DNA of 64,000 nt from Bacteroidales bacterium (GCA_045576355.1 JAZNGG010000029.1:8109-72108); one strand, 5' to 3'; positions 46,693-64,000 are shown, counted from the first letter of the stretch. The notes: generated by a model from the letters alone, not told the origin. Program-made: numbers and translations.

Positions 46693-48558
46693 ATGAAAAA
46701 TCGTATCTGCTTATCAGTCCTGCTTGCCCTCTTCGGGCTCTCATCATGCTCTGACGCACAGGGGCAAAGCATCGACCTTTATGTCTCTCCTCAAGGTCAT
46801 GACTATCTGGACGGACGATCACCCGATCACCCGATGAAGTGCATCCACCGGGCACTGAGAGAGGCACGCGAGATCCGCCGCATCGGTAAGGAGGACGTGA
46901 GCCAAGGGATCCGTATCCACCTCGCAGACGGCACATACTGCCAAGAGGGACCCCTCTTCTTCCGTCCCGAAGATAGTGGCACGGAAGGGGGTCCGACAAC
47001 AATCATCGCCGACCATCCGGGCAAGGCGATCATCAGCGGCGGACGTGAGGTGTCCGGATGGCAACCCCTGACAGAGTCGGTGGAGGGCCTGCCGGAAGCC
47101 GCCCGCGGCAAAGTGTGGGTGGCAGATGCTCCGAGAGTGGGCAATCGGATTCTGGAGAGCAGGCAACTCTGGGTCAATGGCAAAAAGGCTGAGAGAGCAG
47201 CGCTTGTGCCACACGGCGAGATGATCCGAATGACAGACTTCCGCAAAGAGAAACGTGAGATATGGATCCCCACGCCCGAGGTGAGCGGACTGGGAAAGGC
47301 ACAACAAGCAGAGATGGTGGTGCACCAACGCTGGGCCATCGCCATCCTGCGCATCAAGGAGATGGAGACCGTGGGCAAAGTGACGCGGGTCTCTTTTCAT
47401 GAACCGGAGAGTCGGCTCGAGTTTGAACATCCCTGGCCACAGCCGGTGATCGGGGAAGAAAAAGGCAACTCCTCGTTCAACATCGTGGGGGACATCCGTC
47501 TGCTGGACCGACCGGGTGAATGGTGGCAGGAGTATCCCTCCGGTAAGATCTATTATTACCCTCGCCCCGATGAGCAGATGGAGGAAGCTGTGGCAGTGAT
47601 GCCCTACCTCCCGACCCTGATCCGAATCGCCGGCAGTGACGAAAGAGAGGTGGCTCACATCCGGATGGAGGGTGTCAGCCTGCAACATGCCGCATGGTTA
47701 CAGCCCTCATTGAGCGGTCATGTGACGCTACAGGGAGGTATGCCGCTACTGGATGCCTATAAGTTGGCTATCCCGGGATTGCCCGAAAAGGCCGAACTGG
47801 AAAATCAGGCATGGATCGGACGTCCGGTCAGCGCGGTACAAGTAGAGGGAGCACATCACATCACGTTTGAAGGGTGCGAATTTATGCACTTAGGGGCGAC
47901 AGCATTGGATCTGGAGCAGGCAGTGCGTGACAGCCGTGTCAGCGGTTCACTCTTTACAGACATCGGAGGGACAGCCATCGCCATCGGGACATTCCCCGAC
48001 CAAGGCTTTGAGACACATGTCCCCTACATCCCGAAAGCCCCGAAAGAGCTATGCAGCAATATCCTCATCTCCGACAATCTGATCACCGAGGTTGCCAACG
48101 AGGACTGGGGATGTGTGGGCATCGGTGCAGGCTATGTCCGCGATGTGGTGATCGAGCACAATGAGGTGTCACACCTCAACTACTCCGGCATCTGTGTCGG
48201 TTGGGGATGGACGGCACTGGAGAGTGGTATGCGCAATAACCACATCCGTAATAATTATGTCCATCACTTTGCCGGTCAGCTCTATGACGCCGGGGGCATA
48301 TACACGTTGTCTAATCAGCCGGGATCAAGCATCACGGGCAATCGGATAGAACACTTGATCGACGCACCTTATGCAACTAATGACCGGGCATTTTATATCT
48401 ACCTGGACGAAGCAACCGATGGCTTTACGATCTCGGGCAACTGGTGTCCTGAGATTCGATTTGGGGATAACAAACCGGGTCCGGCTCTCATCTGGGGGAC
48501 CAATGGTCCGACAGTTACTCCCGAGATAAAGAACGCTGCCGGACGGAGAAGCAAGTGA
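46693..48558 (+). CDS. Right-handed parallel beta-helix repeat lipoprotein (pectin-lyase-fold glycan hydrolase/lyase-like)
   Basis: 621 aa, lipobox LSSC. Repeated ...GxxIxxNxI... coils (SNILISDNLITEV, VVIEHNEVSHLNYSGI, NNHIRNNYVHH, ITGNRIEH). Confidence 0.65.
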   Translation: MKNRICLSVLLALFGLSSCSDAQGQSIDLYVSPQGHDYLDGRSPDHPMKCIHRALREAREIRRIGKEDVSQGIRIHLADGTYCQEGPLFFRPEDSGTEGGPTTIIADHPGKAIISGGREVSGWQPLTESVEGLPEAARGKVWVADAPRVGNRILESRQLWVNGKKAERAALVPHGEMIRMTDFRKEKREIWIPTPEVSGLGKAQQAEMVVHQRWAIAILRIKEMETVGKVTRVSFHEPESRLEFEHPWPQPVIGEEKGNSSFNIVGDIRLLDRPGEWWQEYPSGKIYYYPRPDEQMEEAVAVMPYLPTLIRIAGSDEREVAHIRMEGVSLQHAAWLQPSLSGHVTLQGGMPLLDAYKLAIPGLPEKAELENQAWIGRPVSAVQVEGAHHITFEGCEFMHLGATALDLEQAVRDSRVSGSLFTDIGGTAIAIGTFPDQGFETHVPYIPKAPKELCSNILISDNLITEVANEDWGCVGIGAGYVRDVVIEHNEVSHLNYSGICVGWGWTALESGMRNNHIRNNYVHHFAGQLYDAGGIYTLSNQPGSSITGNRIEHLIDAPYATNDRAFYIYLDEATDGFTISGNWCPEIRFGDNKPGPALIWGTNGPTVTPEIKNAAGRRSK

Positions 48559-48565
48559 TATATTT

Positions 48566-48880
48566 AGTTGAGGGGTTGAGAGGTTGAAGGGTTGAGGGGT
48601 TTAAAGGGCTGCGCCCGCAGGGCTTATGGAGCTTTGCTCTGCTATGGCTAATGGCGATGGCTACAAGGGTTCATGGCAGATGGCTTTGTTTTCACCTTAT
48701 AATGGGGCTGCGCCCCTAAACCCTTCAACTGAGATAACAGAGTACAGATAACAGAGCAAAGCCATCGCCATCAGCTATAGCGGACGAAGTCCATCAGCCA
48801 TCGCCATCGCCAAAAGCCATCGCCATCAGCCATAGTAGGGCGCAGCCCTTTAAACCTCTAAACCAACAAACCAAACTGTT
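48566..48880. repeat. Composite palindromic intergenic repeat (family copy R4)
   Basis: G-rich decamers (48567-48603). GGGCTGCGCCC...GCTATGGCTAATGGCGATGGC...AGATGGCTTTGTTTTCAC, then the complementary modules back to GGGCGCAGCCC. Confidence 0.85.
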
Positions 48881-48921
48881 AAAAAACCTTTTCCCCTCTT
48901 GACATCGGCTTTCGATTGTTG

Positions 48922-48929
48922 TATCTTTG
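48922..48929 (+). promoter_or_regulatory. -7 promoter box TATCTTTG at the 5' end of cassette copy B
   Basis: Exact TAnnTTTG match, conserved in copy A (complement 15438-15445). Confidence 0.4.
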
Positions 48930-48935
48930 TGACAC

Positions 48936-49033
48936 ATTTTGGTGATTACCCCTGTTTTGGGATAGTAAACGATGAAGCGTTGAGACGTTGTTGGGTTCAG
49001 ACCCTCCATGTTTCGATGCTTCATCGTTTTTTT
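48936..49033 (+). ncRNA. Candidate ~100-nt RNA inside cassette copy B
   Basis: 14-bp stem 48970-48983 / 49013-49026 followed by T7 (49027-49033). One stem position is U-A in copy A and U-G in copy B, which is tolerated only on this strand. Confidence 0.35.
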
Positions 49034-49150
49034 GTGTTCCTGCACTCGGCCGTTCGGATGAAAATTCGACGGCTCAAAAGGGTCCATTCATCGTGTTTTT
49101 TTGCTTAAAAGGCCGAGGCTTTTTACTTCACGCGCGTAGCCTCATTATTC

Positions 49151-49275
49151 AACGAGCGTACCCGCGTTGGTCGATGAGCGTACGCTCGTTGTGCAACGAG
49201 GCTACGCTCGTTAAAAATTCGCCCCGATGCGTTCCCCCATACAAGCCGATGCGAGAACAGATGAGAGCCGATGCG
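49151..49275 (+). repeat. 22-bp-periodic array (copy B): three AACGAG-N6-CTCGTT palindromes, then three GCC(C)GATGCG direct repeats
   Basis: Palindromes at 49151-49168, 49173-49190 and 49195-49212. Direct repeats at 49221, 49243 and 49265. Confidence 0.8.
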
Positions 49276-49460
49276 TGAAAATTATCTCACTTATCAATTT
49301 CTCCCTCGGTCTTTACTGTGATTTTTATGATTGAAACTTTGTCTTCTGATCCATTTTCCCCCTATCTTTAAAAGGTCTCCGATGAGTTTGGCTCAAAGCC
49401 GGAGTATATACCCCATAAAATGATATGCCGAAATAGCATTTAGGTGTTAATGTTTTATAA

Positions 49461-49800
49461 ATGGCAGGGTTGGTTTATGGGCTGCGCCTGCGATGGCTCA
49501 TGGCGATGGCAATGGCTTTGTTTTCACTTTTCACCTTTCAGTTTTCTCTTTGCTCTTTCCTCTTGTCAAGGCGAAGCTCACGTCCAAAGGGAATAATTCG
49601 CAGAATAACGCTCGCTATCGCTTGCGTTTCCCATCCGGATGGCAAAGCACTGCGGAGCATGTGCGCTCTGTGAAATTCTGTGCTTTTCTGTGTGCGAAAA
49701 ACTATGGCAGATGGCGATGGCTGATAGCTGTGCCTCTATAAGAGCAAAACTGAAAACAAAGCCATCTGCCATCGCCATCTGCCATCGCAGGACGAAGTCC
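49461..49800. repeat. Composite palindromic intergenic repeat (family copy R5)
   Basis: GGGCTGCGCCTGCGATGGCTCATGGCGATGGCAATGGCTTTGTTTTCAC ... GAAAACAAAGCCATCTGCCATCGCCATCTGCCATCGCAGG, with a ~150-bp unique centre. Confidence 0.85.
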
Positions 49801-49894
49801 CTAAAATTTTCCTCTTTATATTTTTCTAATTAGTAGAAAATTTGTTTCTTTGCAAAACAATCTGAAAAATCACAAATCTTATAAAATCACAAAC

Positions 49895-51670
49895 ATGAAA
49901 ACCTATCCTAAAATCGGTATCCGACCCGTCATTGATGCACGCCAAGGCGGTATCCGCGAAGGTCTCGAAGAGAAAACCATGTGTCTGGCTAAAGCCGTAG
50001 CAACATTGATTTCCGAAAACGTAAAAAACAGTGATGGAACACCCGTAGAGTGTGTCATTGCCGATGGCACTATCGGTCGTGTTGCCGAGACAGCAGCTTG
50101 TGCCGCTAAGTTTGAACGTGAGGGAGTCGGTGCTACCATCACCGTGACTTCTTGCTGGTGCTATGGTTCAGAAACCATGGACATGCACCCACATTGGCCA
50201 AAGGCTGTTTGGGGATTTAACGGTACAGAGCGCCCCGGTGCAGTCTATCTGGCAGCGGTCCTTGCAGCCCATGCACAAAAGGGTCTGCCGGCATTCGGCA
50301 TCTACGGACATGACGTACAAGACATGGGAGACAACTCTATCCCCGCCGATGTGGCAGAAAAAATACTCCGTTGGGCACGCGCAGCTCAAGCCGTAGCCAC
50401 CATGCGCGGACAGAGCTACCTCTCTATCGGCAGCCAATGTATGGGTATCGCAGGCAGTATCGTGGATCAGAACTTCTTCCAGGAATATCTCGGCATGCGC
50501 AATGAGAGCGTAGATGAAACAGAGATCCTGCGCCGCATGGAGGAAGGAATCTATGATCATGAGGAGTTTGCCAAAGCCATGGCATGGACAGAGAAATACT
50601 GCAAACCGAAAGAGGGATGGGATAAAAACCGCCCGGAGAAACAGAAAGATCGCGCCGGCAAGGACGCTGACTGGGAATTTGTCGTTAAGATGACCATCAT
50701 CATCCGCGACTTGATGTTGGGCAATCCCAAACTGCGCGAGATGGGCTTCAAAGAGGAGGCCATCGGACACAATGCCATCGCAGCCGGATTTCAGGGACAA
50801 CGTCAATGGACTGACTGGAAACCTAACGGAGACTTCTCTGAGGCACTCTTATGCAGCACCTTCGACTGGAATGGTATCCGTGAGGCTTATGTCCTCGCCA
50901 CCGAAAACGATGCTTGCAACGGCGTATCGATGCTCTTTGGCAAACTGCTGACCGGATGCGGACAGATGTTCTCTGACGTGCGCACATATTGGAGCCCGGA
51001 AGCCGTGAAACGTGTGACCGGTAAAGAACTCACCGGAATGGCTGCCGGAGGCATGATCCACCTCATCAACTCAGGAGCCACCACACTCGATGCCACCGGT
51101 GCGAGCACCAATGCTCAAGGTGAGCCTTGTATGAAGCCGGCATGGGAAATGACAGAGGCTGATGCTGAAGCCTGTCTGAAAGCGACCAACTGGCTGCCGG
51201 CTGACCGCGACTACTTCCGTGGAGGAGGATTCTCAAGCAACTTCCTCAGCAAGGGAGGAATGCCGGTGACGATGTGCCGTCTTAATCTGATCAAGGGGCT
51301 TGGTCCTGTTCTGCAGATCGCAGAGGGCTGGACAGCAGACGTCGAACCGGAAATCTTCGATGTCCTCAATATGCGCACAGACCCAACTTGGCCGACTACA
51401 TGGTTCGTGCCTCGTCTGGACGAAACCAAAGCCGCCTTTAAGGATGTCTATTCGGTGATGAATAATTGGGGAGCCAACCACGGCGCCATCAGCTACGGAC
51501 ACATCGGTGCAGACTTAATCACTTTGGCCTCTATGCTCCGCATCCCGGTATGTATGCACAATGTCCCGGAAGATCAGATTTTCCGCCCGGCAGCATGGAA
51601 TGCCTTTGGCATGGATAAGGAGGGTGCAGACTATCGTGCTTGCGCCACTTACGGCCCGGTGTATAAATAG
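49895..51670 (+). CDS. fucI: L-fucose isomerase
   Basis: ORF 49850-51670. Start chosen at [22 protein letters not shown] (ATG 49895), giving 591 aa, the canonical FucI length and N-terminus. Confidence 0.9.
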
Positions 51671-51875
51671 GGTGGTAGCCCCCCTGCGAGGGCATGGGGG
51701 CTACCGCCCTGCTATGGCTCATGGCAATGGCATGGTTGGTTGAGGGGTTGAAGGGTTGAGGGGTTGAAAAAATAAACTTCTAAACCAAATAAAGGGCTGC
51801 GCCCCTGCTATGGCTGATGGCAATGGCAGATGGCTTTGTTTTCAGTTTTCCTCTGTTCTCTATACTCTGTACTCA
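51671..51875. repeat. Composite intergenic repeat (family copy R6)
   Basis: 10-bp hairpin GGTAGCCCCC/GGGGGCTACC (51674-51705), GCCCTGCTATGGCTCATGGCAATGGC, G-rich decamers (51734-51766), and a second GGGCTGCGCCCCTGCTATGGCTGATGGCAATGGCAGATGGCTTTGTTTTCAG. Confidence 0.85.
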
Positions 51876-51891
51876 ACTAACGTATAAAAAA

Positions 51892-52281
51892 ATGAATCCA
51901 ACACCCCAACAAGGATATCCTGCCAGACAATATCCACACCCGGTAAAACGTTACTGCCAGACCCTCGATCTCCGAGACAATCCGGAACTGATTGCGGCCT
52001 ATCGTCGAGCACATAGTCCACAAGAGTTCTGGCCGGAAATCCTCTCCGGCATCCGTGAAGTCGGTATTTTAGAGATGGAGATCTACCTGCTCGGCACCCG
52101 TCTTTTCATGATCGTCGAGACCGCAGAAGATTTCGACTGGGAGACAGCCATGGCTCGTCTGGCAACACTGCCCCGACAAGCCGAATGGGAAGACTTTGTC
52201 GGACAGTTTCAGCAAGTACTCCAAGGAGCCAAGTCATCTGAGAAATGGAGACTGATGGAGCGCATTTTCAAACTTTACTGA
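51892..52281 (+). CDS. RhaM/YiiL-family sugar mutarotase (L-rhamnose/L-fucose mutarotase-like)
   Basis: ORF 51817-52281, whose first 25 codons read through the repeat. Start chosen at MNPTPQQ (ATG 51892). EFWPEILSGIREVGILEMEIYLLGTRLFMIVE pattern. Confidence 0.7.
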   Translation: MNPTPQQGYPARQYPHPVKRYCQTLDLRDNPELIAAYRRAHSPQEFWPEILSGIREVGILEMEIYLLGTRLFMIVETAEDFDWETAMARLATLPRQAEWEDFVGQFQQVLQGAKSSEKWRLMERIFKLY

Positions 52282-52344: not shown

Positions 52345-53649
52345 ATGAACAACCAGAAACCAAAACTTGTAGAGAAAAAATATCTCATCCCCTTTATCCT
52401 CATCACATCATTATTTGCCTTATGGGGATTTGCCAATGACATCACCAATCCGATGGTGGCAGCATTCCAGACAGTAATGGAATTGTCAGCAGCTAAGGCT
52501 TCGTTGATCCAATTTGCATTCTACGGCGGATATGCCACCATGGCGATCCCTGCCGCCCTCTTCATTCGCAAATACAGCTACAAGAGCGGTATATTATTGG
52601 GACTCGGTCTGTATGCCTTCGGTGCATTCCTCTTTATCCCGGCAGCACATTTCCAGGAGTTCACTTTCTTCTGTTTTTCGCTCTATATCCTCACCTTTGG
52701 TCTGGCATTCCTCGAAACGACAGCCAATCCGTTTATCCTTTCATTAGGAGACAAGGCGACCTCAACACGACGCCTCAACATGGCACAAGCATTCAATCCT
52801 GTCGGCTCTCTGAGCGGTATGGCAGTGGCATCCTTTATCGTGCTGCCGCAACTATGGTCTGACAGACGCGATGCCAGCGGTCAAACTTTCTTCCACACCC
52901 TTTCAGATCTGGAAAAGGCAGAGATCAGACTTCATGACCTGGCAGTGATCCGCAATCCATATGTAGCACTCGGACTGATCGTAGTCATCACATTTATTAT
53001 TATCGCCATCACCAAGATGCCGAAGGTGAAAGAAGAAGAGAACACAGAAGAAGCCGAACACACAGTGTGGCAGACACTGCTGAATCTCTGGCGCAACCGC
53101 ATCTATCGCTACGGTGTGATGTCACAGGTATTCTATGTTGGTGCTCAAATCATGGTGTGGACATTCATCATCCAGTATGCCGACCGACTGGGCATCGACA
53201 AAGCTACTGCACAAGCCTATAACATCGTGGCAATGTCTCTCAACCTCGGAGGACGATTTATCGGAACTTACATCATGAAATTTGTTAACACCAGACGTCT
53301 CCTGATGTTATTCGGTATCGGGGCATCATTATGCACCTTGGGAGCCATCACACTGAATAGCATGGCAGGTCTCATCAGCCTTGTGCTCATCAGTCTGTTT
53401 ATGTCCATCATGTTCCCATCGATCTATGGCATAGCCCTCGAAAACGTCGATACACAAGACACCAAACTCGGAGCTGCATTCCTCGTAATGGCGATCGTGG
53501 GAGGAGCTCTCATGCCTCCGCTTCAAGGTATGATCATAGACTTGAAGACCATTGGCTCATTCCCTGCAGTCAATCTCTCTTTCTGTCTGCCGCTGATCTG
53601 CTTCCTGGTGATCGTCTGGTACGGACGTTATAGTCTGAAGAGAAGCTAA
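52345..53649 (+). CDS. fucP: L-fucose:H+ symporter permease (MFS)
   Basis: 434 aa, 12 TM segments, N-terminal FALWGFANDITNPMV FucP pattern. Confidence 0.85.
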   Translation: MNNQKPKLVEKKYLIPFILITSLFALWGFANDITNPMVAAFQTVMELSAAKASLIQFAFYGGYATMAIPAALFIRKYSYKSGILLGLGLYAFGAFLFIPAAHFQEFTFFCFSLYILTFGLAFLETTANPFILSLGDKATSTRRLNMAQAFNPVGSLSGMAVASFIVLPQLWSDRRDASGQTFFHTLSDLEKAEIRLHDLAVIRNPYVALGLIVVITFIIIAITKMPKVKEEENTEEAEHTVWQTLLNLWRNRIYRYGVMSQVFYVGAQIMVWTFIIQYADRLGIDKATAQAYNIVAMSLNLGGRFIGTYIMKFVNTRRLLMLFGIGASLCTLGAITLNSMAGLISLVLISLFMSIMFPSIYGIALENVDTQDTKLGAAFLVMAIVGGALMPPLQGMIIDLKTIGSFPAVNLSFCLPLICFLVIVWYGRYSLKRS

Positions 53650-53735: not shown

Positions 53736-55988
53736 ATGAAACAGACCAATTATCATCTGTTTGACTTTATGGATTTTGATCCGGAGCTCTCCCTCAACGA
53801 ATCTCTCTGGAAAGCGTGCCGACCAACACAAATCAGAGAACAAGATGGAGACATCTGGCTGGACATACCTTTTCAGAAACAGCAGTTGGCCAACGATATG
53901 GCTGCTGACGAAACAGCACCTCGGGTCACACACACACTGAGACTCCGTGCCTATAATCATCACATAGTCCGCCTATCGACCTCTTTTTCGGAGAAACACG
54001 ATGCCCATCCGGATGAAGATGATATGCTCTCATGGCACAAAGAGATCCATCAGATGCCCCTGTCTCTCCATGAAGAAAACGGTCTTTGGACCGTGACAGA
54101 TGATAAAGGCATAAAAAGGGCTGAAATCAATCTGAGGGAGGCTGTAATAGACTACTGGAGCGACCTCCAGCCTGCACCCCAGGAGACGATAGACATGACG
54201 CTCTTCCCCGATGGGAAAAAGAGTGTCCGTCTGAGTGCCTATGACCACTTTTCGCCCCCTCGTTACGATGCTCTCCCATTGGCTTACTGCCTCAAAGATG
54301 GGGAAAGCGAACGTGCCACACTCTCTTTCGAATGTCAGCCCGACGAATGTTTTGTCGGTACGGGTGAACGATTTACCAAAATGGACCTGAGCGGAAGGAC
54401 ATTCCAGCTTAAAAACCAGGATGGACAAGGGGTTAACAACCGTCGATGCTATAAGAACATCCCATTCTACCTGAGTAGCCGGATGTATGGTGTCTTCTAT
54501 CACACTTGTGCCCATTGTAAACTCTCTCTGGCAGATCACTCCACACGCTCAGTACAGTTTCTTAACGACCAGCCCACGATCGATGCATTTATCATCGGCG
54601 GTGAGACTCCCGAAGAGATCCTGCACGGCTATCGCTCCCTGACCGGTTTTCCTCCGATGCTCCCCCTCTGGAGTTTCGGCATCTGGATGAGCCGCATGAC
54701 CTACTTCAGCGCTGATGAAGTCAATGAGATCTGTCAGCGACTACGTGCAGAGAACTATCCCTGCGACGTGATCCATCTGGATACAGGATGGTTTAAGACC
54801 GACTGGTTATGTGAATGGAAATTTAACGAGGAACGATTCCCTAATCCCGTTAAGTTTATCCGTGATCTGAAAGAAAACGGATATCGTGTTTCCCTTTGGC
54901 AATTGCCCTATGTGGCAGAAGATGCCGAACAGATCACCGAGGCACGAGACAACAACTATATTGCCCCCCTTACCAAAAAACAAGAACGAGAAGGCTCCAA
55001 CTTCTCGGCATTAGATTACGCCGGAACTATCGACTTTACCTATCCTAAAGCGACAGAGTGGTACAAGCAATTGCTCCGCCGCCTGCTGGAAATGGGTGTC
55101 ACCTGCATCAAAACAGACTTTGGAGAAAACATTCACATGGATGCACTCTATCATGGCATGCCGGCAGCATTGCTCAACAATCTATATGCCCTGCTCTATC
55201 AGAAAGCCGCCTATGAGATTACCGAAGAGGTGTGCGGAGATGGCATTGTCTGGGCAAGAGCCGCGTGGGCAGGATGCCAACGCTACCCATTGCATTGGGG
55301 CGGCGACTCAGCCAGCACATGGGACGGAATGGCAGGTTCGCTGAAAGGAGGTTTGCACTTCGGTCTCTCCGGATTTGCTTTCTGGAGCCATGATGTGCCG
55401 GGATTCCACAGCCTGCCCAACTTTATGAACTCCCCCTTGCAGGAGGATGTCTATGTCCGCTGGACACAGTTTGGAGTCTTCACGTCTCATATGCGCTATC
55501 ATGGCAGCCACAAACGCGAACCATGGGCATATCCTGCCATAGCCCCGATCGTCAAGAAGTGGTGGCATCTGCGTTATCGACTTTTGCCTTACATCATCGA
55601 GCAAAGCCAAAAAGCCACCACCACCGGCTATCCTCTCGTTCGTGCCCTCATCTTCCATCATCATGATGACCGGATCTGCTGGCACATCGATGACCAGTAT
55701 TATTTCGGTGATGACCTCATGGTAGCTCCGGTAATGAACAGCGATAACTGCCGTGATGTCTATCTGCCGGAAGGCGAATGGGTGGACTTCTTCTCCGGCG
55801 AGACATTGCAGGGGGGCAGATGGTTGCGCCATCTGGAAGTTCCTTTGGACAAAATGCCTGTCTATGCTAAAAAAGGCAGTAACATTCCTATGTATAACGA
55901 ACCGGTGCAGTGCACCGATCAGATGGATCTCAGCAAAGCCGAACTCCTTTGCATCGATGAAACATTCGGAGGAATCTCCTTAGACTGA
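53736..55988 (+). CDS. GH31 glycoside hydrolase, YicI-like alpha-xylosidase type
   Basis: 750 aa with no signal peptide seen. Nucleophile block CIKTDFGENI (D at 55116-55118) and acid/base block LHWGGDS, as in YicI-type alpha-xylosidases. Confidence 0.8.
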   Translation: MKQTNYHLFDFMDFDPELSLNESLWKACRPTQIREQDGDIWLDIPFQKQQLANDMAADETAPRVTHTLRLRAYNHHIVRLSTSFSEKHDAHPDEDDMLSWHKEIHQMPLSLHEENGLWTVTDDKGIKRAEINLREAVIDYWSDLQPAPQETIDMTLFPDGKKSVRLSAYDHFSPPRYDALPLAYCLKDGESERATLSFECQPDECFVGTGERFTKMDLSGRTFQLKNQDGQGVNNRRCYKNIPFYLSSRMYGVFYHTCAHCKLSLADHSTRSVQFLNDQPTIDAFIIGGETPEEILHGYRSLTGFPPMLPLWSFGIWMSRMTYFSADEVNEICQRLRAENYPCDVIHLDTGWFKTDWLCEWKFNEERFPNPVKFIRDLKENGYRVSLWQLPYVAEDAEQITEARDNNYIAPLTKKQEREGSNFSALDYAGTIDFTYPKATEWYKQLLRRLLEMGVTCIKTDFGENIHMDALYHGMPAALLNNLYALLYQKAAYEITEEVCGDGIVWARAAWAGCQRYPLHWGGDSASTWDGMAGSLKGGLHFGLSGFAFWSHDVPGFHSLPNFMNSPLQEDVYVRWTQFGVFTSHMRYHGSHKREPWAYPAIAPIVKKWWHLRYRLLPYIIEQSQKATTTGYPLVRALIFHHHDDRICWHIDDQYYFGDDLMVAPVMNSDNCRDVYLPEGEWVDFFSGETLQGGRWLRHLEVPLDKMPVYAKKGSNIPMYNEPVQCTDQMDLSKAELLCIDETFGGISLD

Positions 55989-56000
55989 TAATATACATTT

Positions 56001-59000
56001 ATGAGTATGAAAACCTGGAAAGACAATCTTGAAGAGACCAAACAGAGATATACAGACTGGTGGAATCATAAAGGGATCGTTCTCAACATGTGGGAACACT
56101 TTCAAACCGGAGTTATCCCGCATGCCGACATCCCGGCACCGACCCCACCGAGGGATCTTAATCAGCGATGGTTTGACCCGAACTGGAGGGCTGAATATCT
56201 GGATTGGTATGTGGCACACAGCTCACTGAAAGCAGATATGCTGCCGGTGGCAAATACACAACTCGGTCCGGGCTCGCTGGCTGCGATCTTAGGAGGAAGA
56301 CTGGAGGGAGGTGAAGACACCATTTGGATTCATCCGGATCCGAATTATAATGACGATTTCAGTTTCGATCCGAATCACCCGAACTTCCTACTCCACAAGC
56401 AGCTCCTTAAAGCCTGCAAGCAAAAGGCTCAAGGGCACTATTATGTCGGTATGCCTGACTTAATGGAGGGATTGGACGTATTGGCTGCCATCAAGGGGAC
56501 CGACAAAGTGCTCTTGGACACGGTGATGCAGCCGGAAGTATTGGAGCAACAATTGCAACGCATCAACGATATCTATTTCCAGGTCTTTGACGAACTCTAT
56601 GAGATAATCCGAGAAGGAGATGAAATGGCATTCTGCTATTTCTCTTCATGGGCACCGGGCAAGATGAGCAAAATACAGTGCGATATCTCAACCATGCTCT
56701 CAGAGGATGATTATAGGCGTTTCGCACAACCATTCCTCCGGGAACAATGTCAGAAAATCGACTATACACTCTATCATCTGGATGGCGTCGGAGCCATGCG
56801 ACACCTGCCGGCATTGCTGGAAATCAAAGAACTGAATGCCATCCAGTGGACACCCGGCGTCGGCGAGCCACAAGGTGGTTCTCCCAAATGGTATCAACTC
56901 TACAGACAGATTCTCGATGCCGGAAAGAGCATTATGGCTTGCTGGGTAACTCTGGACGAGTTGAGACCTCTGTTGGACAACATCGGCGGAGATGGTGTCC
57001 ACTTAGAAATGGACTTCCATAACGAAGCAGAGGTGGAACAAGCCATGAAGATTGTCGAGGAATATCGCTCCTCGTCCAGTCGTCCTGCCACCGCTCTATC
57101 TCAACAGTCCTCCCCCATTGTCCTTTCCTCCGAACCTCGCACCACATCATCACACGCTATAGAGCATCCCACCAGCGCTTCCGAACCTCTCTACCCGATA
57201 GAGGAGATTGCTCGGAAACGAATATTGGTTTTGGATGGGGCCATGGGGACCATGATTCAGACATACAATCTCTCTGAAGAGGATTTCCGAGGAGAAAGAT
57301 TTGCCCGACATACGCACCCGCTTAAAGGGAACAATGACCTCCTTTCGCTGACCCGTCCGAAGATCATCGAAGAAATACACCGCAGATATCTCTCTGCCGG
57401 TGCAGACATCATTGAGACCAACACTTTCAGCGCACAAAGGATCTCAATGGCAGATTACGGACTCTCCGAATCTTGTCGAGAAATCAATCTTGCAGCATGT
57501 CAGATCGCAAGAAAAGTGGCCGATGAGTTTACTCAAATGACTCCGGACAAGCCTCGTTTTGTAGCAGGATCGGTCGGTCCGACCACCAAATGTTGCTCTC
57601 TCTGTTCGGACATACATCATGTCGAAAGACGTCCTCTCGATTTTGACACCATCGCCGCTGCCTATCGTGAGCAAATAGAGGCACTCATCGAGGGAGGAGT
57701 AGATACACTCTTGATAGAGACCATCTTTGACACGCTCAATGCCAAAGCAGCCATCTATGCAGCACAAGAAGCAATGCAGCACTGCAAACGGAAACTCCCC
57801 ATCATGCTCAGTCTCACATTGGCTGATTCGACCGGACATAATCTCGCAGGGCAAGATATCGATGCTTTCTTGGCTTCGGTGGCGCATGCTCCGATCTTCT
57901 CTATCGGTCTCAACTGCTCTTTCGGGGCAGAACAGATGAAACCATTCCTCCGCCAGATCGCACAAAAAGCCCCCTACTACATCAGCGCATACCCCAATGC
58001 CGGTCTGCCCGATGAGCACGGAAATTATGATCAGACTCCGGAAGAGATGCAGCAACAGGTGTGGCCGCTCATCGAAGAGCATCTGATCAACATCATAGGG
58101 GGTTGTTGCGGGACAACAGATCGGCACATCGCTCTCTACGAGTCTCTCGTGCATCCGGCTCCACAGATCTATGTTTCCCCACATCGTCCTGTATCTAAAG
58201 CGGCTTATGTCACACTCTCTGCCGGTAAAGCGCTCGACTGGAAACCCTCAGAGACTCTTATCGTCGGTGGTAGCATCGATGCTTCTCAACACTCCACTCT
58301 GATCGAACAGATCAAAAAACGTCAGTGGGGAGAGATTACCGAAACCGCTACGACACAAATCGAAAACGGAGCATCACTGATCCTTATCCAACCGGATACA
58401 GAGACTGCGCCTTGCGATGCTCAGTCAGCCGAAGAGGTGGTCAGAGCGCTCACAGCCGATGCCACCATAGCTGCGACTCCGCTCTTCCTCTCATCCTCTT
58501 CGGAAGAAGCACGAACCATATTTGCCAAAAATCTGCAAGGGCGCAGTATCATCGGACCATTAACCTTTAAGAGGGGTGAGGATCATTTTCTCGCAGAGGC
58601 ACATCGACTGCACCGACTTGGCGCTCTGGTGGTCTTCCGTCCGGAAACAGACGAAGACCCAAATCCGAAAACCGAACGGCGCATCGACCTATGTCTCCGA
58701 GCATATCTGCTTCTGACATTGGAAGTGGGCTATCAGCCTTCAGAAATCATCATAGATCCGATCACACCTCAATTCTCACGGAGACACTCCATCGCTCCAT
58801 TCATAGAGACCGTAGAATGGTTGCGACACAACTGGCCAAGCATACATCTGCTTTGTAATCTCGATGCACTGATAGAGCATCTCAATGTCCATGCTGCCAT
58901 CGCAACAAGTCTGCAAAGCGAATTTTGCCAAATGGCTAAAAATGCAGGATGTGATCTGATTATCACCGCTCACCCCGAGATGTTAGGTCTGCAAGAGACA

Positions 59001-59750
59001 CTCCGGCAAGGGGCAGAAGGAGATCATCATGCCCTGGATCGGCTCGAGAAAATCAGTAAAAACGCTTCACTTGCCAACAGCTCGTCCAGTCATCAGACAC
59101 AAACTGAAAAAACAGAATCGTCTGACGAAGTCTTCTCTGCTATCTTGGAGGGTAAAGCCGAAAAAGCCGTGGAGGCAACACGCCAAGCCATCGAACAAGG
59201 AGAGACTCCGCAGCAGATTATCAACCGCCAGATGATACGTGCCATGGGAGAAGTAGGAAGCCGATTTGAAAGCGGAAAAGCTTTTGTGCCCCAACTGCTG
59301 ATGGCAGGAAGAGCTATGAAAGCTGCATTAGACCTGCTTAAGCCCCTCATGAGCGGCGAAGCCTCAGCATCGGCGGGCAAGGTGGTCATAGGTACCGTCA
59401 AGGGAGACCTGCACGACATCGGCAAGAATCTCGTTGCATCGATGTTAGAGGGTTGTGGATTTGAAGTGATCAACATCGGTATAGATGTCTCCGCAGAGAC
59501 CTTTGTCGAGGCTGTACGCGAACACAAACCCGACATCCTCTGTCTCAGCGCCCTGCTGACCACAACGATGACCTATATGCCAACAGTGATCCAGGCTCTC
59601 AGCGATGCAGGACTCCGTGACTCAATAAAAATCATGGTAGGTGGAGCTCCTGTCAGTCAAGAATTTGCGGACCAGATCGGAGCCGACGGCTATAGTGACA
59701 ATGCCAATGCAGCCGCTCATCTCGCTCAGAAACTAATGAAAGAACAATAG
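56001..59750 (+). CDS. Fusion protein: URO-D-like methyltransferase domain + MetH-type homocysteine S-methyltransferase domain + degenerate pterin-binding-like barrel + B12-cap/B12-binding domain
   Basis: 1249-aa uninterrupted ORF. Zn-ligand Cys in LNCSFG (57915-57917) and GGCCGT (58104-58109). DxHxxG in GDLHDIGKN (59406-59423). See findings for the domain parsing. Confidence 0.75.
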   Translation: MSMKTWKDNLEETKQRYTDWWNHKGIVLNMWEHFQTGVIPHADIPAPTPPRDLNQRWFDPNWRAEYLDWYVAHSSLKADMLPVANTQLGPGSLAAILGGRLEGGEDTIWIHPDPNYNDDFSFDPNHPNFLLHKQLLKACKQKAQGHYYVGMPDLMEGLDVLAAIKGTDKVLLDTVMQPEVLEQQLQRINDIYFQVFDELYEIIREGDEMAFCYFSSWAPGKMSKIQCDISTMLSEDDYRRFAQPFLREQCQKIDYTLYHLDGVGAMRHLPALLEIKELNAIQWTPGVGEPQGGSPKWYQLYRQILDAGKSIMACWVTLDELRPLLDNIGGDGVHLEMDFHNEAEVEQAMKIVEEYRSSSSRPATALSQQSSPIVLSSEPRTTSSHAIEHPTSASEPLYPIEEIARKRILVLDGAMGTMIQTYNLSEEDFRGERFARHTHPLKGNNDLLSLTRPKIIEEIHRRYLSAGADIIETNTFSAQRISMADYGLSESCREINLAACQIARKVADEFTQMTPDKPRFVAGSVGPTTKCCSLCSDIHHVERRPLDFDTIAAAYREQIEALIEGGVDTLLIETIFDTLNAKAAIYAAQEAMQHCKRKLPIMLSLTLADSTGHNLAGQDIDAFLASVAHAPIFSIGLNCSFGAEQMKPFLRQIAQKAPYYISAYPNAGLPDEHGNYDQTPEEMQQQVWPLIEEHLINIIGGCCGTTDRHIALYESLVHPAPQIYVSPHRPVSKAAYVTLSAGKALDWKPSETLIVGGSIDASQHSTLIEQIKKRQWGEITETATTQIENGASLILIQPDTETAPCDAQSAEEVVRALTADATIAATPLFLSSSSEEARTIFAKNLQGRSIIGPLTFKRGEDHFLAEAHRLHRLGALVVFRPETDEDPNPKTERRIDLCLRAYLLLTLEVGYQPSEIIIDPITPQFSRRHSIAPFIETVEWLRHNWPSIHLLCNLDALIEHLNVHAAIATSLQSEFCQMAKNAGCDLIITAHPEMLGLQETLRQGAEGDHHALDRLEKISKNASLANSSSSHQTQTEKTESSDEVFSAILEGKAEKAVEATRQAIEQGETPQQIINRQMIRAMGEVGSRFESGKAFVPQLLMAGRAMKAALDLLKPLMSGEASASAGKVVIGTVKGDLHDIGKNLVASMLEGCGFEVINIGIDVSAETFVEAVREHKPDILCLSALLTTTMTYMPTVIQALSDAGLRDSIKIMVGGAPVSQEFADQIGADGYSDNANAAAHLAQKLMKEQ

Positions 59751-59812
59751 AAACTGAGAACCGAGAGAGGTGTATATCTCCTCTCTCGGTCTCTCCCTTA
59801 ATAAAAACCATT

Positions 59813-61408
59813 ATGATCAACACACATTTCTTTAAAGTAGAGGATTGGGTTATTTTATCCACTTACTTTATCCTTCTTCTTTTAATCGGTATTTATGCCA
59901 GCCGCAAGGCAAGCCAAGGTAGTGCCAGTTTTATGGCAGGCAACTCTCTGCGATGGTACCATATCGGCTTCTCTATGTGGGGCACCAATGTCGGTCCGTC
60001 CATGCTTATAGCCTCAGCGAGTGCAGGCTTCACCACTGGCATAGTTTCGGGCAACTATGCCTGGTATGCTTTCATCTTCATCGCGCTGCTTGCCTTCGTC
60101 TTTGCTCCTCGCTATTTAGGTGAAAAAGTGATGACACTCCCGGAGTTTATGGGTAAACGTTTTAGCAGTTCCACTCGAGGTGTTTTGGCATGGTACACCA
60201 TCGTCACTGTACTCATCTCATGGCTGGCACTTACACTCTTTGCCGGAGGTGTTCTCATTCGTCAGATCTTTGACATTCCGATGTGGCTCTCTGCCACCAT
60301 CCTACTCCTCATCTCCGCCTTTTTCACCATTCTCGGAGGACTGAAAGCCATCGCCTATACCAATGTATATCAGATGTTGCTCCTCATCATTGTCTCCCTC
60401 GCCCTTACTGTCTTTGGCATCTTTAAGTTGGGAGATGGTTCTTTCTTCGGAGGTATTCAAGTGCTGGGTGATCCTCAAATCATCCCGGACAACTACTGGC
60501 GTCTCTTCCAGCCCAATGAAGACCCGGCATTCCCATGGCTCCCGATCCTTTTGGGATATCCGATCTCCGGCATCTGGTTCTGGTGTACAGATCAATCCAT
60601 GGTGCAGCCTGTCCTTGCGGCTCGCAGTCTCAAAGAGGGACAACGGGGTGCCAACTTCACCGGATGGCTCAAAATCCTCGATGTACCGCTTTACATTCTT
60701 CCCGGCATACTCTGTTTTGCACTCTGTAAAACCGGCATCTTTACTTCGACTCCTGCTCCGGACAATGCCTATATGACGATGGTCTCCAATCTTTTCCCCT
60801 CCGGCATGGTGGGTCTTGTCATGGCGATTCTTACCGCAGCTTTGGTGAGCACTATTGGGTCTGCTCTCAATGCGCTCAACACGGTTTTCACCATGGACAT
60901 ATATGTTAAAAATATCCGTCCGCAAGCTACCTCACGCGAAATTACCAATATGGGACGTCTGGTCACCGTTACCGGCTCCATCCTCAGCATCCTTATTTGT
61001 GTCTGCATTGATAACATCCGAGGGCTGGATCTCTTCAATATCTTCCAGTCCGTCCTCAGCTTCATTGCTCCTCCGATGGCTGCAGTCTTTGTGATGGGTG
61101 TTTTCTGGCGTAAGTGTACTACGATGGCTGCCAATCTTACCCTTACTGTGGGGACACTTATCTCCATCGGTATCGGAGTGCTCTATCTTTGGGCATGGCC
61201 CATCGCTTCGTGGAAACCCCACTTCATGATGCTCTCTTTCTATATCTTTGTCTTATTGGTTGTCGGGATGGTTATCATCAGTCTTTGTGGGAAAAAAGAG
61301 ACGCACGAACCCATCAAGATACTCCGCAGCCCTATCTCTTTAGAGACCAAAATAGGTTGGGGATTGCTGTTTGCTGTCATGATAGGTTTATATGTGTGGT
61401 TTAATTAA
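59813..61408 (+). CDS. Sodium:solute symporter (SSS/SGLT family)
   Basis: 531 aa, ~13-14 TM segments, SSS-type N-terminus (...FMAGNSLRWYHIGFSMWGTNVGPSMLI...). Confidence 0.8.
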   Translation: MINTHFFKVEDWVILSTYFILLLLIGIYASRKASQGSASFMAGNSLRWYHIGFSMWGTNVGPSMLIASASAGFTTGIVSGNYAWYAFIFIALLAFVFAPRYLGEKVMTLPEFMGKRFSSSTRGVLAWYTIVTVLISWLALTLFAGGVLIRQIFDIPMWLSATILLLISAFFTILGGLKAIAYTNVYQMLLLIIVSLALTVFGIFKLGDGSFFGGIQVLGDPQIIPDNYWRLFQPNEDPAFPWLPILLGYPISGIWFWCTDQSMVQPVLAARSLKEGQRGANFTGWLKILDVPLYILPGILCFALCKTGIFTSTPAPDNAYMTMVSNLFPSGMVGLVMAILTAALVSTIGSALNALNTVFTMDIYVKNIRPQATSREITNMGRLVTVTGSILSILICVCIDNIRGLDLFNIFQSVLSFIAPPMAAVFVMGVFWRKCTTMAANLTLTVGTLISIGIGVLYLWAWPIASWKPHFMMLSFYIFVLLVVGMVIISLCGKKETHEPIKILRSPISLETKIGWGLLFAVMIGLYVWFN

Positions 61409-61745: not shown

Positions 61746-64000
61746 TTAGAAATCGAGTTTCAGGCCGGCGAAGAAAGAGCGGGGCATATCGGGCCCATAC
61801 ATATAACCGGCATCGCGTAACTCCCCTTTATCGAAGTCTTCTTGATAAGCATTAAAGATATTCTGCACTCCGGCATTGAGTTGGAGCACTGTACCTCCTC
61901 TTAAGTCGAAATCATAACTGAGTTTGAAGTTCAGGTCAAAAAATTCGGGAGTCTCCACAGCAATGTCCTCAGGTACATATCCGGCTACGTGTTGCATCAG
62001 CATGCTTCCCGTATAAGTTCCTGACAAGGCAGCTGTCAAAGGCTTGACAGGATTATAACTCAATGTGAAATAACCATAAGCCTCCGGTGTACGGGCAATG
62101 CGTTTTTCTGCTTTGGCTGTCTCACTCCATTGTTCCGCTTTCTTGTATTCGCTCTTTTGGAGTGTGGCTCCTGCCTGCAATTGCAGCATATTACGATAAG
62201 CCAATTTACCCTCCAAAGTCACACCATAAACATCAGCTCCCGAAGCATTGTGACGCTCCAGTGTGAGGATTCCATCCTCATGACTTTTCTCTCTCAAAGC
62301 AAACACATCATTGAGAGTCGTATAGAATCCCTCAATCAAGAAATTGCCCTGAAAGTCTCCCCAACGATGATATAAGTCGGCAGAGAGGCTGAAACTGTGC
62401 GACTTCTCCTCCTGCAGATCATCAGCCAATTCGATCATCGATACACCTCCACCGACAGCCTCGATGTGAAGATCCTCGTCAAAGGCCTGTGGCGCACGGA
62501 ATCCGGCAGAATAGCTGACACGGAAGTTGATGTTTTCCGAAGGGTTGAAACGAAGGTTGGCTCGCGGACTGAAGATAAGGCCATCGATCAGATTATGTTT
62601 GTCAAAGCGACCACCGATGAGGAAACTCCAACGATCATTCTTCCACTCATTTTGCAAAAAGAGACTTCCGATATGCACAGTCTGCTTCAACTCTCGACCA
62701 TAACCCCACATATTATCCTCAAGGGCATCGCGATTATACTCCATACCTCCTGTGAAAGCCGCCGGCATAAAGAGACATCGTTCGAAGTTATAGACATACT
62801 GACCGCCCACTACTGTGGTGAGATCTGTGGTGGCACCATAAGCATACGGATCACGTCCGGCTCCGTAATAACTCTTACGGTCGATGTGCTGCGCTGAGGC
62901 ATAAAGACTCACCCGATGCTTCTCGTTGGGACTAAAATAATCAAACTTCAGGCCTCCTCCATTGATACTATGCTCGGTCTGTTCACAGATATTCGCCTGA
63001 TGAGGGGGCAGATCCAGAGAGTCTCCTCCACGACGAAACTCCTCGATGTGGTGATATTCAAAAGAGAGTTTGCTATAAAGACCGGTCTTGATATAAGAGC
63101 GAAATCCAATGGTCTGCTGATGCAACTTACACAACTCACTATATCCATCTCCATTGGCATCATATTCTTCGCGCTGACGATTTTGACCGAAAATGAAAAG
63201 TCCCGCCTTCCGATTATCTGTCACTAAGGAAGCATTGAGTGTAGAACTATGATCTATGGCTCCATCGATCGACATCGTTGTGTGAGCCAATTGTCCACTA
63301 TTACGCAATGGCTCCTTTGTAATAATATTGATCGTTCCGGCAATGGCAGACGAACCAAACAATGCCGAACCCCCTCCACGCATTACCTCTACTCGATCCA
63401 CCATATTGGCAGGGATTTGCTCCAGTCCATACACTCCGGAGAGAGCACTGAAGATCGGTCGGGAGTCAATAAGAATCTGTGTATAGGGACCATCGAGTCC
63501 ATTGATGCGTACCTGCTGGAAACCACAGTTCTGGCAATTATTTTCGACACGCACACCGGGCTGATAGTTCAATCCCTCTGCCAAAGTAGGTGATGTAGTT
63601 GTCTCAAACAGACGGGAATCAACAACATTGATAAGAGTAGGAGCCAAACGACGGGAAGTCTCATTACGATTGGCAGAAACTACGACAGCATCCAGGGCTA
63701 TCAAGTCTTCAGAGATAGTAAAGTTCTCTTCCAGTGTCTTACCCTTTTTGGTTACCACTTCACGTTCGATGGTCTCATATCCCAATGTGGAAACCACCAT
63801 CGTGTATGTACCCTCCGGCAGATTCTTCAAGAAATAGTGTCCACTCTCATCCGTAGTAGTTCCGATAGTAGTCCCTTTCAGGACAACATTGACAAAAGGG
63901 ACATGCTCACCATTATCGGCATCAATCACATGTCCGACAATATTCGCATCACTGCGATTCACTTTCACATGGCTGTGTCCATGATGATCTGAATGACTCT
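61746..64000 (-). CDS. TonB-dependent receptor with CarboxypepD_reg-like N-domain; 5' end lies beyond the window
   Basis: Frame stays open to position 64000 (…SHSDHHGHSH-VKVNRSD…). The listed start at 63968 is only a GTG. Plug and 22-strand-barrel-like body with terminal ...FAGLKLDF. Confidence 0.8.
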   Translation of the reverse strand, partial: SHSDHHGHSHVKVNRSDANIVGHVIDADNGEHVPFVNVVLKGTTIGTTTDESGHYFLKNLPEGTYTMVVSTLGYETIEREVVTKKGKTLEENFTISEDLIALDAVVVSANRNETSRRLAPTLINVVDSRLFETTTSPTLAEGLNYQPGVRVENNCQNCGFQQVRINGLDGPYTQILIDSRPIFSALSGVYGLEQIPANMVDRVEVMRGGGSALFGSSAIAGTINIITKEPLRNSGQLAHTTMSIDGAIDHSSTLNASLVTDNRKAGLFIFGQNRQREEYDANGDGYSELCKLHQQTIGFRSYIKTGLYSKLSFEYHHIEEFRRGGDSLDLPPHQANICEQTEHSINGGGLKFDYFSPNEKHRVSLYASAQHIDRKSYYGAGRDPYAYGATTDLTTVVGGQYVYNFERCLFMPAAFTGGMEYNRDALEDNMWGYGRELKQTVHIGSLFLQNEWKNDRWSFLIGGRFDKHNLIDGLIFSPRANLRFNPSENINFRVSYSAGFRAPQAFDEDLHIEAVGGGVSMIELADDLQEEKSHSFSLSADLYHRWGDFQGNFLIEGFYTTLNDVFALREKSHEDGILTLERHNASGADVYGVTLEGKLAYRNMLQLQAGATLQKSEYKKAEQWSETAKAEKRIARTPEAYGYFTLSYNPVKPLTAALSGTYTGSMLMQHVAGYVPEDIAVETPEFFDLNFKLSYDFDLRGGTVLQLNAGVQNIFNAYQEDFDKGELRDAGYMYGPDMPRSFFAGLKLDF

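Follow-up and report, generated by a model that had tools for sequence, protein, structure and literature searches.

Why would an operon for pectin and fucose sugars encode, in a single polypeptide, a methyltransferase-like barrel, the homocysteine module of methionine synthase (MetH) and a corrinoid domain? The question is raised by an open reading frame (ORF) at 56001..59750 (+) of a 64,000-nt stretch of DNA from a Bacteroidales bacterium (GCA_045576355.1 JAZNGG010000029.1:8109-72108; referred to as the window), whose GC content is 47.6% and whose Bacteroidales-like host is a gut or rumen member of the order. The encoded fusion would be a cytoplasmic, folate-independent and cobamide-dependent sugar O-demethylase that passes the methyl group to homocysteine; this reading, in which the substrate is taken from gene context, is given a probability of about 0.55. 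Judged by the same context, the substrate is most likely 2-O-methyl-D-xylose of the disaccharide 2-O-Me-Xyl-α1,3-L-Fuc from rhamnogalacturonan II (RG-II), the most complex dietary glycan, with 2-O-methyl-L-fucose as the alternative. Comparison DNA consisted of 80 species loci from GTDB (L006-L085), together with the loci L086, L087, L095 and L096. A scan of GTDB species genomes returned at least 350 species with a close relative of the N-terminal domain, and all locus counts refer to the best 80, which take in Prevotella, Bacteroides, Phocaeicola vulgatus, P. sartorii and Duncaniella.

The ORF starts with ATG and continues unbroken for 1249 aa. Its first part (aa 1-360, 56001..57080, +; the N-domain) is predicted to be a divergent TIM barrel of the URO-D/MtaA fold and is the proposed donor-side methyltransferase (MT-I), as suggested by AlphaFold, Foldseek, family invariants and weak PF01208 matches in relatives. 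A Ser/Thr/Pro-rich linker, evident from the translation (aa 361-400, 57081..57200, +), leads to a MetH-type homocysteine S-methyltransferase domain (Hcy; aa 401-720, 57201..58160, +), identified by its identity to MetH and by PF02574 (aa 409-711, 322 bits). The next region (aa 745-1010, 58233..59030, +) is a degenerate pterin-binding barrel, here called ψFol after the folate (Fol) domain of MetH; the assignment draws on a sub-threshold PF00809 match, an alignment with B. thetaiotaomicron MetH (PDB ID: 3K13), retained columns and a predicted β/α barrel. The chain ends with a corrinoid cap (B12-binding_2, PF02607, 75.9 bits; aa 1043-1114, 59127..59342, +) and a Rossmann B12-binding domain (PF02310, 102.7 bits; aa 1126-1238, 59376..59714, +) with the motif D1136-x-H1138-x-x-G1141. 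MtgC and pyl_corrinoid are the top NCBIfam models for the B12 domain, and the cap and Rossmann parts together resemble 1Y80, 4JGI and MtaC. An initial annotation, made from the sequence by eye, had described this domain order, and its coordinates and motifs, including the zinc cysteines (C639 in LNCSFG, C702 and C703 in GGCCGT) and DxHxxG, are reproduced by Pfam and the translation. Among the Pfam families that it expected, PF02574, PF02607 and PF02310 matched and PF00809 was weak, whereas PF01208 had no match in the N-domain of the window. It had also stressed the lack of a reactivation domain. The Pfam search indeed found no PF02965 activation domain in the ORF, but this is not diagnostic, because canonical Bacteroidales MetH (~917 aa) also has no fused PF02965 and relatives of the fusion encode a stand-alone one.

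The substrate assignment comes from the neighbouring genes. In the window, their order is GH141, a 1.3-kb intergenic region, FucI, mutarotase, FucP, GH31, the fusion, a hairpin and a symporter. The GH141 lipoprotein (46693..48558, +; Pfam GH141_M and Beta_helix) is a full-length homolog of BT1002, with 527 bits over aa 28-618 to its structure (PDB ID: 5MQP, BT_1002); signal and lipobox were read from the sequence, the N-terminus being MKNRICLSVLLALFGLSSC. L-fucose isomerase FucI (49850..51670, +; Pfam Fucose_iso_N1, N2 and C), a RhaM/FucU-type sugar mutarotase (51817..52281, +; PF05336, 101 bits) and the L-fucose:H+ symporter FucP (52345..53649, +; TIGR00885, 546 bits, above the cut-off of 280) come next. 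The GH31 glycosidase (53736..55988, +), identified by Pfam GH31 domains, PDB and NCBIfam, carries no signal peptide, as expected for a cytoplasmic enzyme, and its stop codon lies 12 nt 5' of the start of the fusion. It is α-xylosidase-like: its best PDB match is 5F7C (1323 bits over 746 aa), followed by the YicI α-xylosidase (352 bits), and its best NCBIfam model is the α-xylosidase PRK10658, at 480 bits below the cut-off of 606. The entry 5F7C is deposited as 'alpha-glucosidase', no paper on it was found, and it is closer to this protein than is the GH31 of any of the 80 loci (at most 77% identity). A GC-rich hairpin, read from the intergenic sequence between the stop of the fusion and the next gene (59756..59793, +), precedes the sodium:solute symporter (SSF; 59813..61408, +; PF00474, 178 bits).

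Two kinds of loci were distinguished: type (a), in which the fusion consists of the N-domain and the corrinoid module (N+B12, 16/80, ~600-700 aa), and type (b), in which an Hcy domain stands between them (N+Hcy+B12, 64/80, ~950-1050 aa). Every type (a) locus (16/16) has the GH141-GH31-fusion-SSF unit, as do 41/64 of type (b), where many contigs are short, and SSF directly follows the fusion in 16/16 and 23/64, respectively. Gaps between the genes of the cluster are 12 nt, or the genes overlap, and the cluster spans Prevotellaceae, Bacteroidaceae and Muribaculaceae; fucose genes adjoin it in Duncaniella-type loci. A survey of gene neighbours, as proposed in the initial annotation, thus revealed conserved GH141-GH31-fusion-SSF synteny across the 80 Bacteroidales loci, and this synteny strengthens its guess that the donors are RG-II methyl sugars. 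In one Prevotella locus (L017:4207-9992), a SASA-type carbohydrate esterase and a DUF5703-GH78 rhamnosidase (1450 aa) are encoded directly upstream of the fusion, which fits a pectin/RG-II context.

BT1002 frees 2-O-Me-Xyl-α1,3-Fuc from chain A of RG-II (PMC10154630). B. thetaiotaomicron secretes this disaccharide and 2-O-Me-Fuc, for which no pathway was known in a gut microbe as of March 2026; 1 of 21 RG-II linkages (2-O-Me-Xyl-α1,3-Fuc) and two methylated sugars are without a known catabolic route (bioRxiv 10.64898/2026.03.13.711244). A search of a literature library found no work that links methyl-fucose, methyl-xylose or GH141/GH31 to cobalamin or to a corrinoid protein. In the proposed route, the GH141 lipoprotein would free the methylated disaccharide outside the cytoplasm, and SSF or FucP would import it. 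The N barrel would bind the methyl sugar, and transfer of the sugar's methyl group to Co(I) in the B12 domain would leave CH3-Co(III) and an unblocked 2-OH; the B12 domain would then swing to the Hcy domain, where the zinc thiolate would take the methyl group to yield methionine and Co(I). Cytoplasmic GH31 would split Xyl-α1,3-Fuc afterwards: retaining glycosidases usually need the 2-OH, which suggests that demethylation precedes hydrolysis. FucI and the mutarotase would feed fucose catabolism, while ψFol would no longer bind methyl-tetrahydrofolate (methyl-THF) and would persist in a structural role beside the homocysteine barrel.

The alternative that survives best, although unlikely, retains corrinoid-dependent transfer to homocysteine and changes the donor, which might be methanol from pectin, 4-O-methyl-glucuronate or another methylated metabolite. 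The sugar substrate comes from synteny alone, pectin also yields methanol, and distant homologs of the N-domain occur in varied sugar and non-sugar contexts. Such donors are harder to reconcile with the tight, often overlapping coupling of the fusion to an α-xylosidase-like GH31 and a BT1002-type GH141 in three families. Methanol, in particular, requires no glycosidase or symporter, and the known methanol methyltransferases (MtaB) belong to a different fold family.

The donor-side role falls to the N-domain in the O-demethylase reading. Searches with aa 1-360 gave no match of its own in Pfam, NCBIfam or PDB sequences, so that the domain was placed only via structure prediction and Foldseek. 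The AlphaFold model (predicted local distance difference test score, pLDDT, 96) has M. mazei MtaA as the best structural match (PDB ID: 4ay7/4ay8; E 3e-9, template modelling score 0.63), followed by URO-D structures and then by MetE, and PF01208 is matched weakly by 22/56 members of the N-domain family (best E 5e-6). As modelled, the domain is URO-D/MtaA-like at the level of the fold and is not a sequence-model member of URO-D/MtaA. The description as URO-D-like in the initial annotation can be kept for the fold, as the structural comparison, which might have spoken against it, gave a match to MtaA and URO-D; it does not extend to the Pfam family or to its H-x-C...C motif, in place of which the domain has H259-L-D261. 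The 56-sequence alignment has W21, W109, D228, F241, H259, D261 and G262 as invariant residues, with further near-invariant tryptophans. A word-indexed search returned 2871 proteins of the N-domain family; its 1975 cluster representatives at 50% identity are mostly stand-alone proteins of ~360 aa. Among distant relatives, P0176 (975 aa) has the inverted order, with a B12-like region at aa 125-483 and an N-domain-like barrel at aa 581-956.

A convergent gene pair located near the cluster in 58/80 loci adds a second candidate for this role. URO2 (57/80) is a zinc methyltransferase of the MtaA/CmuA family (336 aa; PF01208, 187 bits; TIGR01463) with invariant H229-x-C231 and C311, and ACT (55/80) is a stand-alone MetH activation domain of 217 aa (PF02965); examples are found at L017:12833-14493 (-) and in P. 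vulgatus (L043, 13724-15386). By their family assignments, both proteins are corrinoid methyl-transfer machinery. A possible remnant of the pair at 49529-49693 of the window was rejected (55 aa, 29% match, E 0.5, translation unconvincing).

Several points weigh against a sugar O-demethylase with the N-domain on the donor side. Known O-demethylases cleave aryl ethers, whose leaving group is easier than that of an aliphatic sugar methyl ether. The structure nearest to GH31, 5F7C, may be BT_0339 of B. thetaiotaomicron (a RefSeq alpha-xylosidase), and this species does not use the disaccharide. The N-domain has neither the H-x-C...C zinc motif of MtaA and CmuA nor any conserved cysteine, and hhalign gave no significant profile similarity between it and the co-located URO2; a non-significant collinear alignment puts H259-L-D261-G262 opposite H229-N-C231-G of URO2, an equivalence that is unproven. 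Stand-alone N-domain homologs (35-42% identity) occur with no corrinoid gene nearby (L086:5183-7033, L087:6083-7990), so the family is not necessarily one of methyltransferases throughout, and more widely it may not be uniformly corrinoid-linked. The window contains neither URO2 nor the activation-domain gene. The sugar may be demethylated by the N-domain or by URO2, or each may act on one methyl sugar. Both stand-alone homologs lie 10-970 nt 3' of a gene for an uncharacterised ~620-aa protein with no Pfam match, and the surroundings in L087 include pentose/transketolase and GH43-like genes.

Some of these points feed a reading in which URO2, encoded elsewhere in the genome of the window, is the demethylase, and the N-domain is a second acceptor-side, sugar-binding or regulatory module, or another enzyme. 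The reading is decidedly unlikely, even though the zinc motif is invariant in 54/54 URO2 sequences and missing from the N-domain, and stand-alone homologs do without corrinoid neighbours. What speaks for the N-domain is its covalent fusion to the cap and B12 module in 80/80 Bacteroidales species loci, an arrangement like that of CmuA, and the purifying selection on a gene with no URO2 within 64 kb.

On the acceptor side, all three zinc cysteines (C639, C702 and C703) are retained, and the three positions do not vary among 14 canonical MetH sequences or among 63 Hcy domains of fusions. The window keeps 143/160 (89%) of the canonical-invariant columns in Hcy and 43/148 (29%) in Fol. Homology across the whole pterin barrel is clear from the HMMER alignment of aa 744-986 with the folate domain of 3K13 (E 2.6e-21). 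Comparison with 3K13 and 27 canonical Bacteroidales MetH sequences (HMMER, MAFFT) showed that VIDVNMD is replaced by LILIQPD, IDSS by LSSS (DSS by SSS), VNSIS by IGPLT (NS by GP) and GGVSNLSFSF by LCNLDALIEH (SN by DA, FSFRG by IEHLN; over a longer stretch, GGVSNLSFSFRG by LCNLDALIEHLN); DP is the sole surviving pterin-contact motif. The lost motifs supply the Asp, Asn, Asp, Asn and Arg contacts to the pterin in structures of MetH, MeTr and dihydropteroate synthase. AlphaFold predicts an eight-stranded β/α barrel with pLDDT mostly 75-96, in a model biased by having been built on an alignment of canonical MetH. To judge from motifs and model, the folate site is degenerate: the fold is kept and the contact motifs are lost. 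All four replacements had been noticed in the initial annotation, and its caveat of an intact folate pocket found no support, the contact motifs being gone. Searches with the Hcy and ψFol parts together retrieved no ortholog, all matches being canonical MetH (44-50% identity). No relative of ψFol alone turned up in a word search of 5.8 billion proteins, nor among JGI metagenomes scanned with ψFol peptides. In two top-scoring entries of canonical MetH (P0269 and P0270), internal stretches of 40-60 residues are duplicated in tandem, probably through errors of assembly or gene calling.

It is very improbable that the fusion is the methionine synthase of the organism, still using methyl-THF, with the N-terminal extension as an accessory or regulatory part. 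The metH model TIGR02082 does align with aa 405-1248, identity to canonical MetH is 67% in the Hcy domain, and an activation domain is missing from canonical MetH too. However, the score of 711 bits is below the cut-off of 1011, as is that of NF007024 (664 bits, cut-off 1497), and PF00809 reaches 19-21 bits against a cut-off of 25.5. The DSS, NS, SN and FR motifs are replaced, 29% of the invariant Fol columns remain, relatives delete Fol altogether, the B12 domain seems to belong to a lineage other than that of MetH and the gene stands in a glycosidase and transporter operon. The initial view that this is not a housekeeping MetH is borne out by the sub-cut-off metH score, the lost folate motifs and the apparent lineage of the B12 domain.

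Domain comparisons indicate how the chain was put together. The N-domain is 82-86% identical and the B12 domain 70-80% identical to those of N+B12 and N+Hcy+B12 relatives, versus ~40% for the B12 domain to canonical Bacteroidales MetH. Hcy, by comparison, is 48-55% identical to relatives versus 67% to canonical MetH, and Fol is 27-29% identical to the latter. Since N and B12 match an existing N+B12 family and only Hcy and Fol come from MetH, the protein did not begin as a MetH to which an N-domain was added, and the 'rewired MetH' origin put forward initially has to be abandoned. On these identities, it is instead an MT-I-like and corrinoid protein that received the Hcy+Fol module of MetH as an insertion. 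The N+B12 form predominates in Bacteroides and Phocaeicola and is named just 'cobalamin-binding protein' or 'corrinoid protein' by NCBI. No remnant of Fol was found in the 80 loci, long linkers included; it is kept only by the window and L095, an architecture unique among 81 fusions. As 64/80 loci carry N+Hcy+B12 with no Fol barrel, folate appears dispensable and homocysteine the recurrent partner. The initial single-chain reading stands in that URO-D-fold, corrinoid and homocysteine modules share one chain, whereas the 1249-aa form turned out to be rare and the common forms have no pterin barrel. An N+B12 protein would have captured Hcy+Fol between its domains, most lineages would have dropped Fol later, and this one would have kept it.

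A neighbour-joining tree places the Hcy domain of the window between the canonical and fusion clades, next to the canonical one. The domain shares 4/8 derived states specific to N+Hcy+B12 fusions (N614, I620, D671 and P689), so that a separate second capture of MetH, prompted by the tree, is not preferred; a single capture, of which the window would hold a basal and slowly evolving descendant, fits the sequences better and is not proven. Many database entries of the fused form stop at 470-630 aa, inside Hcy, and the contig L096 ends ~130 nt into the gene; such truncations may stem from assemblies that broke where the sequence has a paralogue in metH.

The 1249-aa form was recovered a second time. 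Exact look-ups of the full fusion protein and of GH31 gave no match, and that of SSF led to L095. This Logan contig of 9.7 kb belongs to run DRR768612 and encodes rhaM-FucP-GH31-fusion-SSF, with 99.7% nucleotide identity to the window. The ORF is intact in this independent assembly and sample, which argues that it is not an assembly chimera. Across the whole gene, the two sequences have 19 differences (14 synonymous and 5 nonsynonymous). Within ψFol, 5 are synonymous and 1 is nonsynonymous (ratio of nonsynonymous to synonymous change per site, pN/pS, ~0.07; P=0.004 versus neutrality, from two sequences), and this 5:1 excess suggests that ψFol is maintained by purifying selection. The simplest reason for its retention would be a structural role next to the Hcy barrel. 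GC content (0.49-0.52) and GC content at third codon positions (GC3, 0.47-0.56) are alike across the domains. It is scarcely credible that the form is an assembly chimera, or that the gene is decaying and lacks its own function: the architecture is unique and ψFol has no relatives in either large search, but the ORF is intact in an independent sample, synonymous changes prevail in the gene (14:5) and in ψFol, base composition is similar throughout, and Fol would be intact if canonical metH had been joined in by error.

By analogy, the fusion resembles a three-component corrinoid methyltransferase system in one chain, with the homocysteine module of MetH as the sink. CmuA (~617 aa) joins a methyltransferase domain of MtaA type to a corrinoid domain and would be the closest known layout for the N+B12 core, which also has ~600 aa with a URO-D/MtaA barrel followed by a corrinoid domain; as with CmuA, a separate partner would pass the methyl group on. 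Unlike that of CmuA, the N-domain of the fusion is undetected by TIGR01463 and PF01208 and lacks H-x-C...C, a sugar methyl ether is the presumed donor, and the acceptor is a MetH Hcy domain and not the pterin-family CmuB. The short Bacteroidales MetH shares the order Hcy-Fol-cap-B12, a three-cysteine Hcy domain, the His-on DxHxxG motif and the lack of a fused activation domain. The fusion differs from it in a Fol barrel with no pterin-contact motifs, a B12 domain apparently of another corrinoid lineage, the extra MtaA-fold barrel, its position in a glycan-utilisation operon and a score below the metH model cut-off. The O-demethylases of acetogens and Desulfitobacterium, built from MT-I, a corrinoid protein, MT-II and an activating enzyme, and the methanol system MtaABC likewise move a methyl group from the substrate to Co(I) and on to an acceptor. 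However, their acceptor is THF or coenzyme M and not homocysteine, and their modules are not joined in one chain. The presumed substrate of the fusion is an aliphatic sugar, in contrast to the aryl substrates of the O-demethylases, and its host is a saccharolytic Bacteroidales and not an acetogen or methanogen. Reactivation in relatives of the fusion apparently relies on a MetH-type activation domain, as opposed to the RamA/RACE ATPase of the acetogen systems.

MtgBCDE from Ruegeria pomeroyi sets a precedent for a corrinoid hub between the demethylation of a substrate and the synthesis of methionine; together with the split MetH of Phaeobacter, it offers a non-MetH corrinoid protein that links demethylation of a nutrient to homocysteine methylation (PMC12478193); by comparison of layouts, this is the closest precedent for such coupling. 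Unlike the fusion, MtgBCDE consists of separate subunits, its donor methyltransferase is of the MttB family with glycine betaine as substrate, and its MtgD is a functional, bidirectional pterin-binding protein that runs the flux through THF. The P450 demethylase for 6-O-methyl-galactose in marine Bacteroidetes is also encoded within a glycan-utilisation locus; like it, the fusion would remove a methyl ether that blocks catabolism. The P450 reaction is oxidative, needs O2 and releases formaldehyde (PMC6292453), whereas the proposed route is anaerobic and would keep the methyl group in methionine.

The association of the family with the operon is more important than the ψFol form, which is a rare and informative intermediate. 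With N-domain relatives in at least 350 Bacteroidales species, the GH141-GH31-corrinoid-symporter cluster is a directly testable candidate for the missing step in RG-II utilization. A broader claim is tentative and falls short of being favoured: the family might be the first anaerobic, cobamide-dependent O-demethylases for sugar methyl ethers and the missing pathway for 2-O-Me-Xyl-Fuc and/or 2-O-Me-Fuc, with the gene of the window as a surviving capture intermediate whose folate barrel is disabled. If so, ether cleavage by Co(I) would reach carbohydrates, beyond aryl ethers and methanol. Pectin use by gut and rumen Bacteroidales would be partly B12-dependent, tying fibre breakdown to cobamide availability and cross-feeding, and plant methyl groups would enter methionine by a folate-independent route. 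The forms N+B12, N+Hcy+ψFol+B12 and N+Hcy+B12 would record a MetH module that was captured and then trimmed.

Some minor features of the window remain to be described. A gene for a TonB-dependent receptor with CarboxypepD_reg (SusC-like; 61746-63968, -) converges on SSF and probably runs off the end of the window, with no SusD-like gene after it. The non-coding region 48559-49849 (1.3 kb, between GH141 and fucI) contains the repeated GC-rich motifs GCCATCGCCATC, GGGCTGCGCCC and ATGGCnGATGGCTTTGTTTTCAC in both orientations; an Rfam scan of the window, these repeats included, found no cobalamin riboswitch or other family. For the mutarotase ORF, the annotated start (51817) is formed by a copy of ATGGCnGATGGCTTTGTTTTCAC and is probably too far upstream (51817-51891), the call of 129 aa in L095 implying a start near 51892. 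The same holds for the start of the FucI ORF (49850-49894), for which the ATG at 49895 (MKTYPKIG...) is likely the true start.

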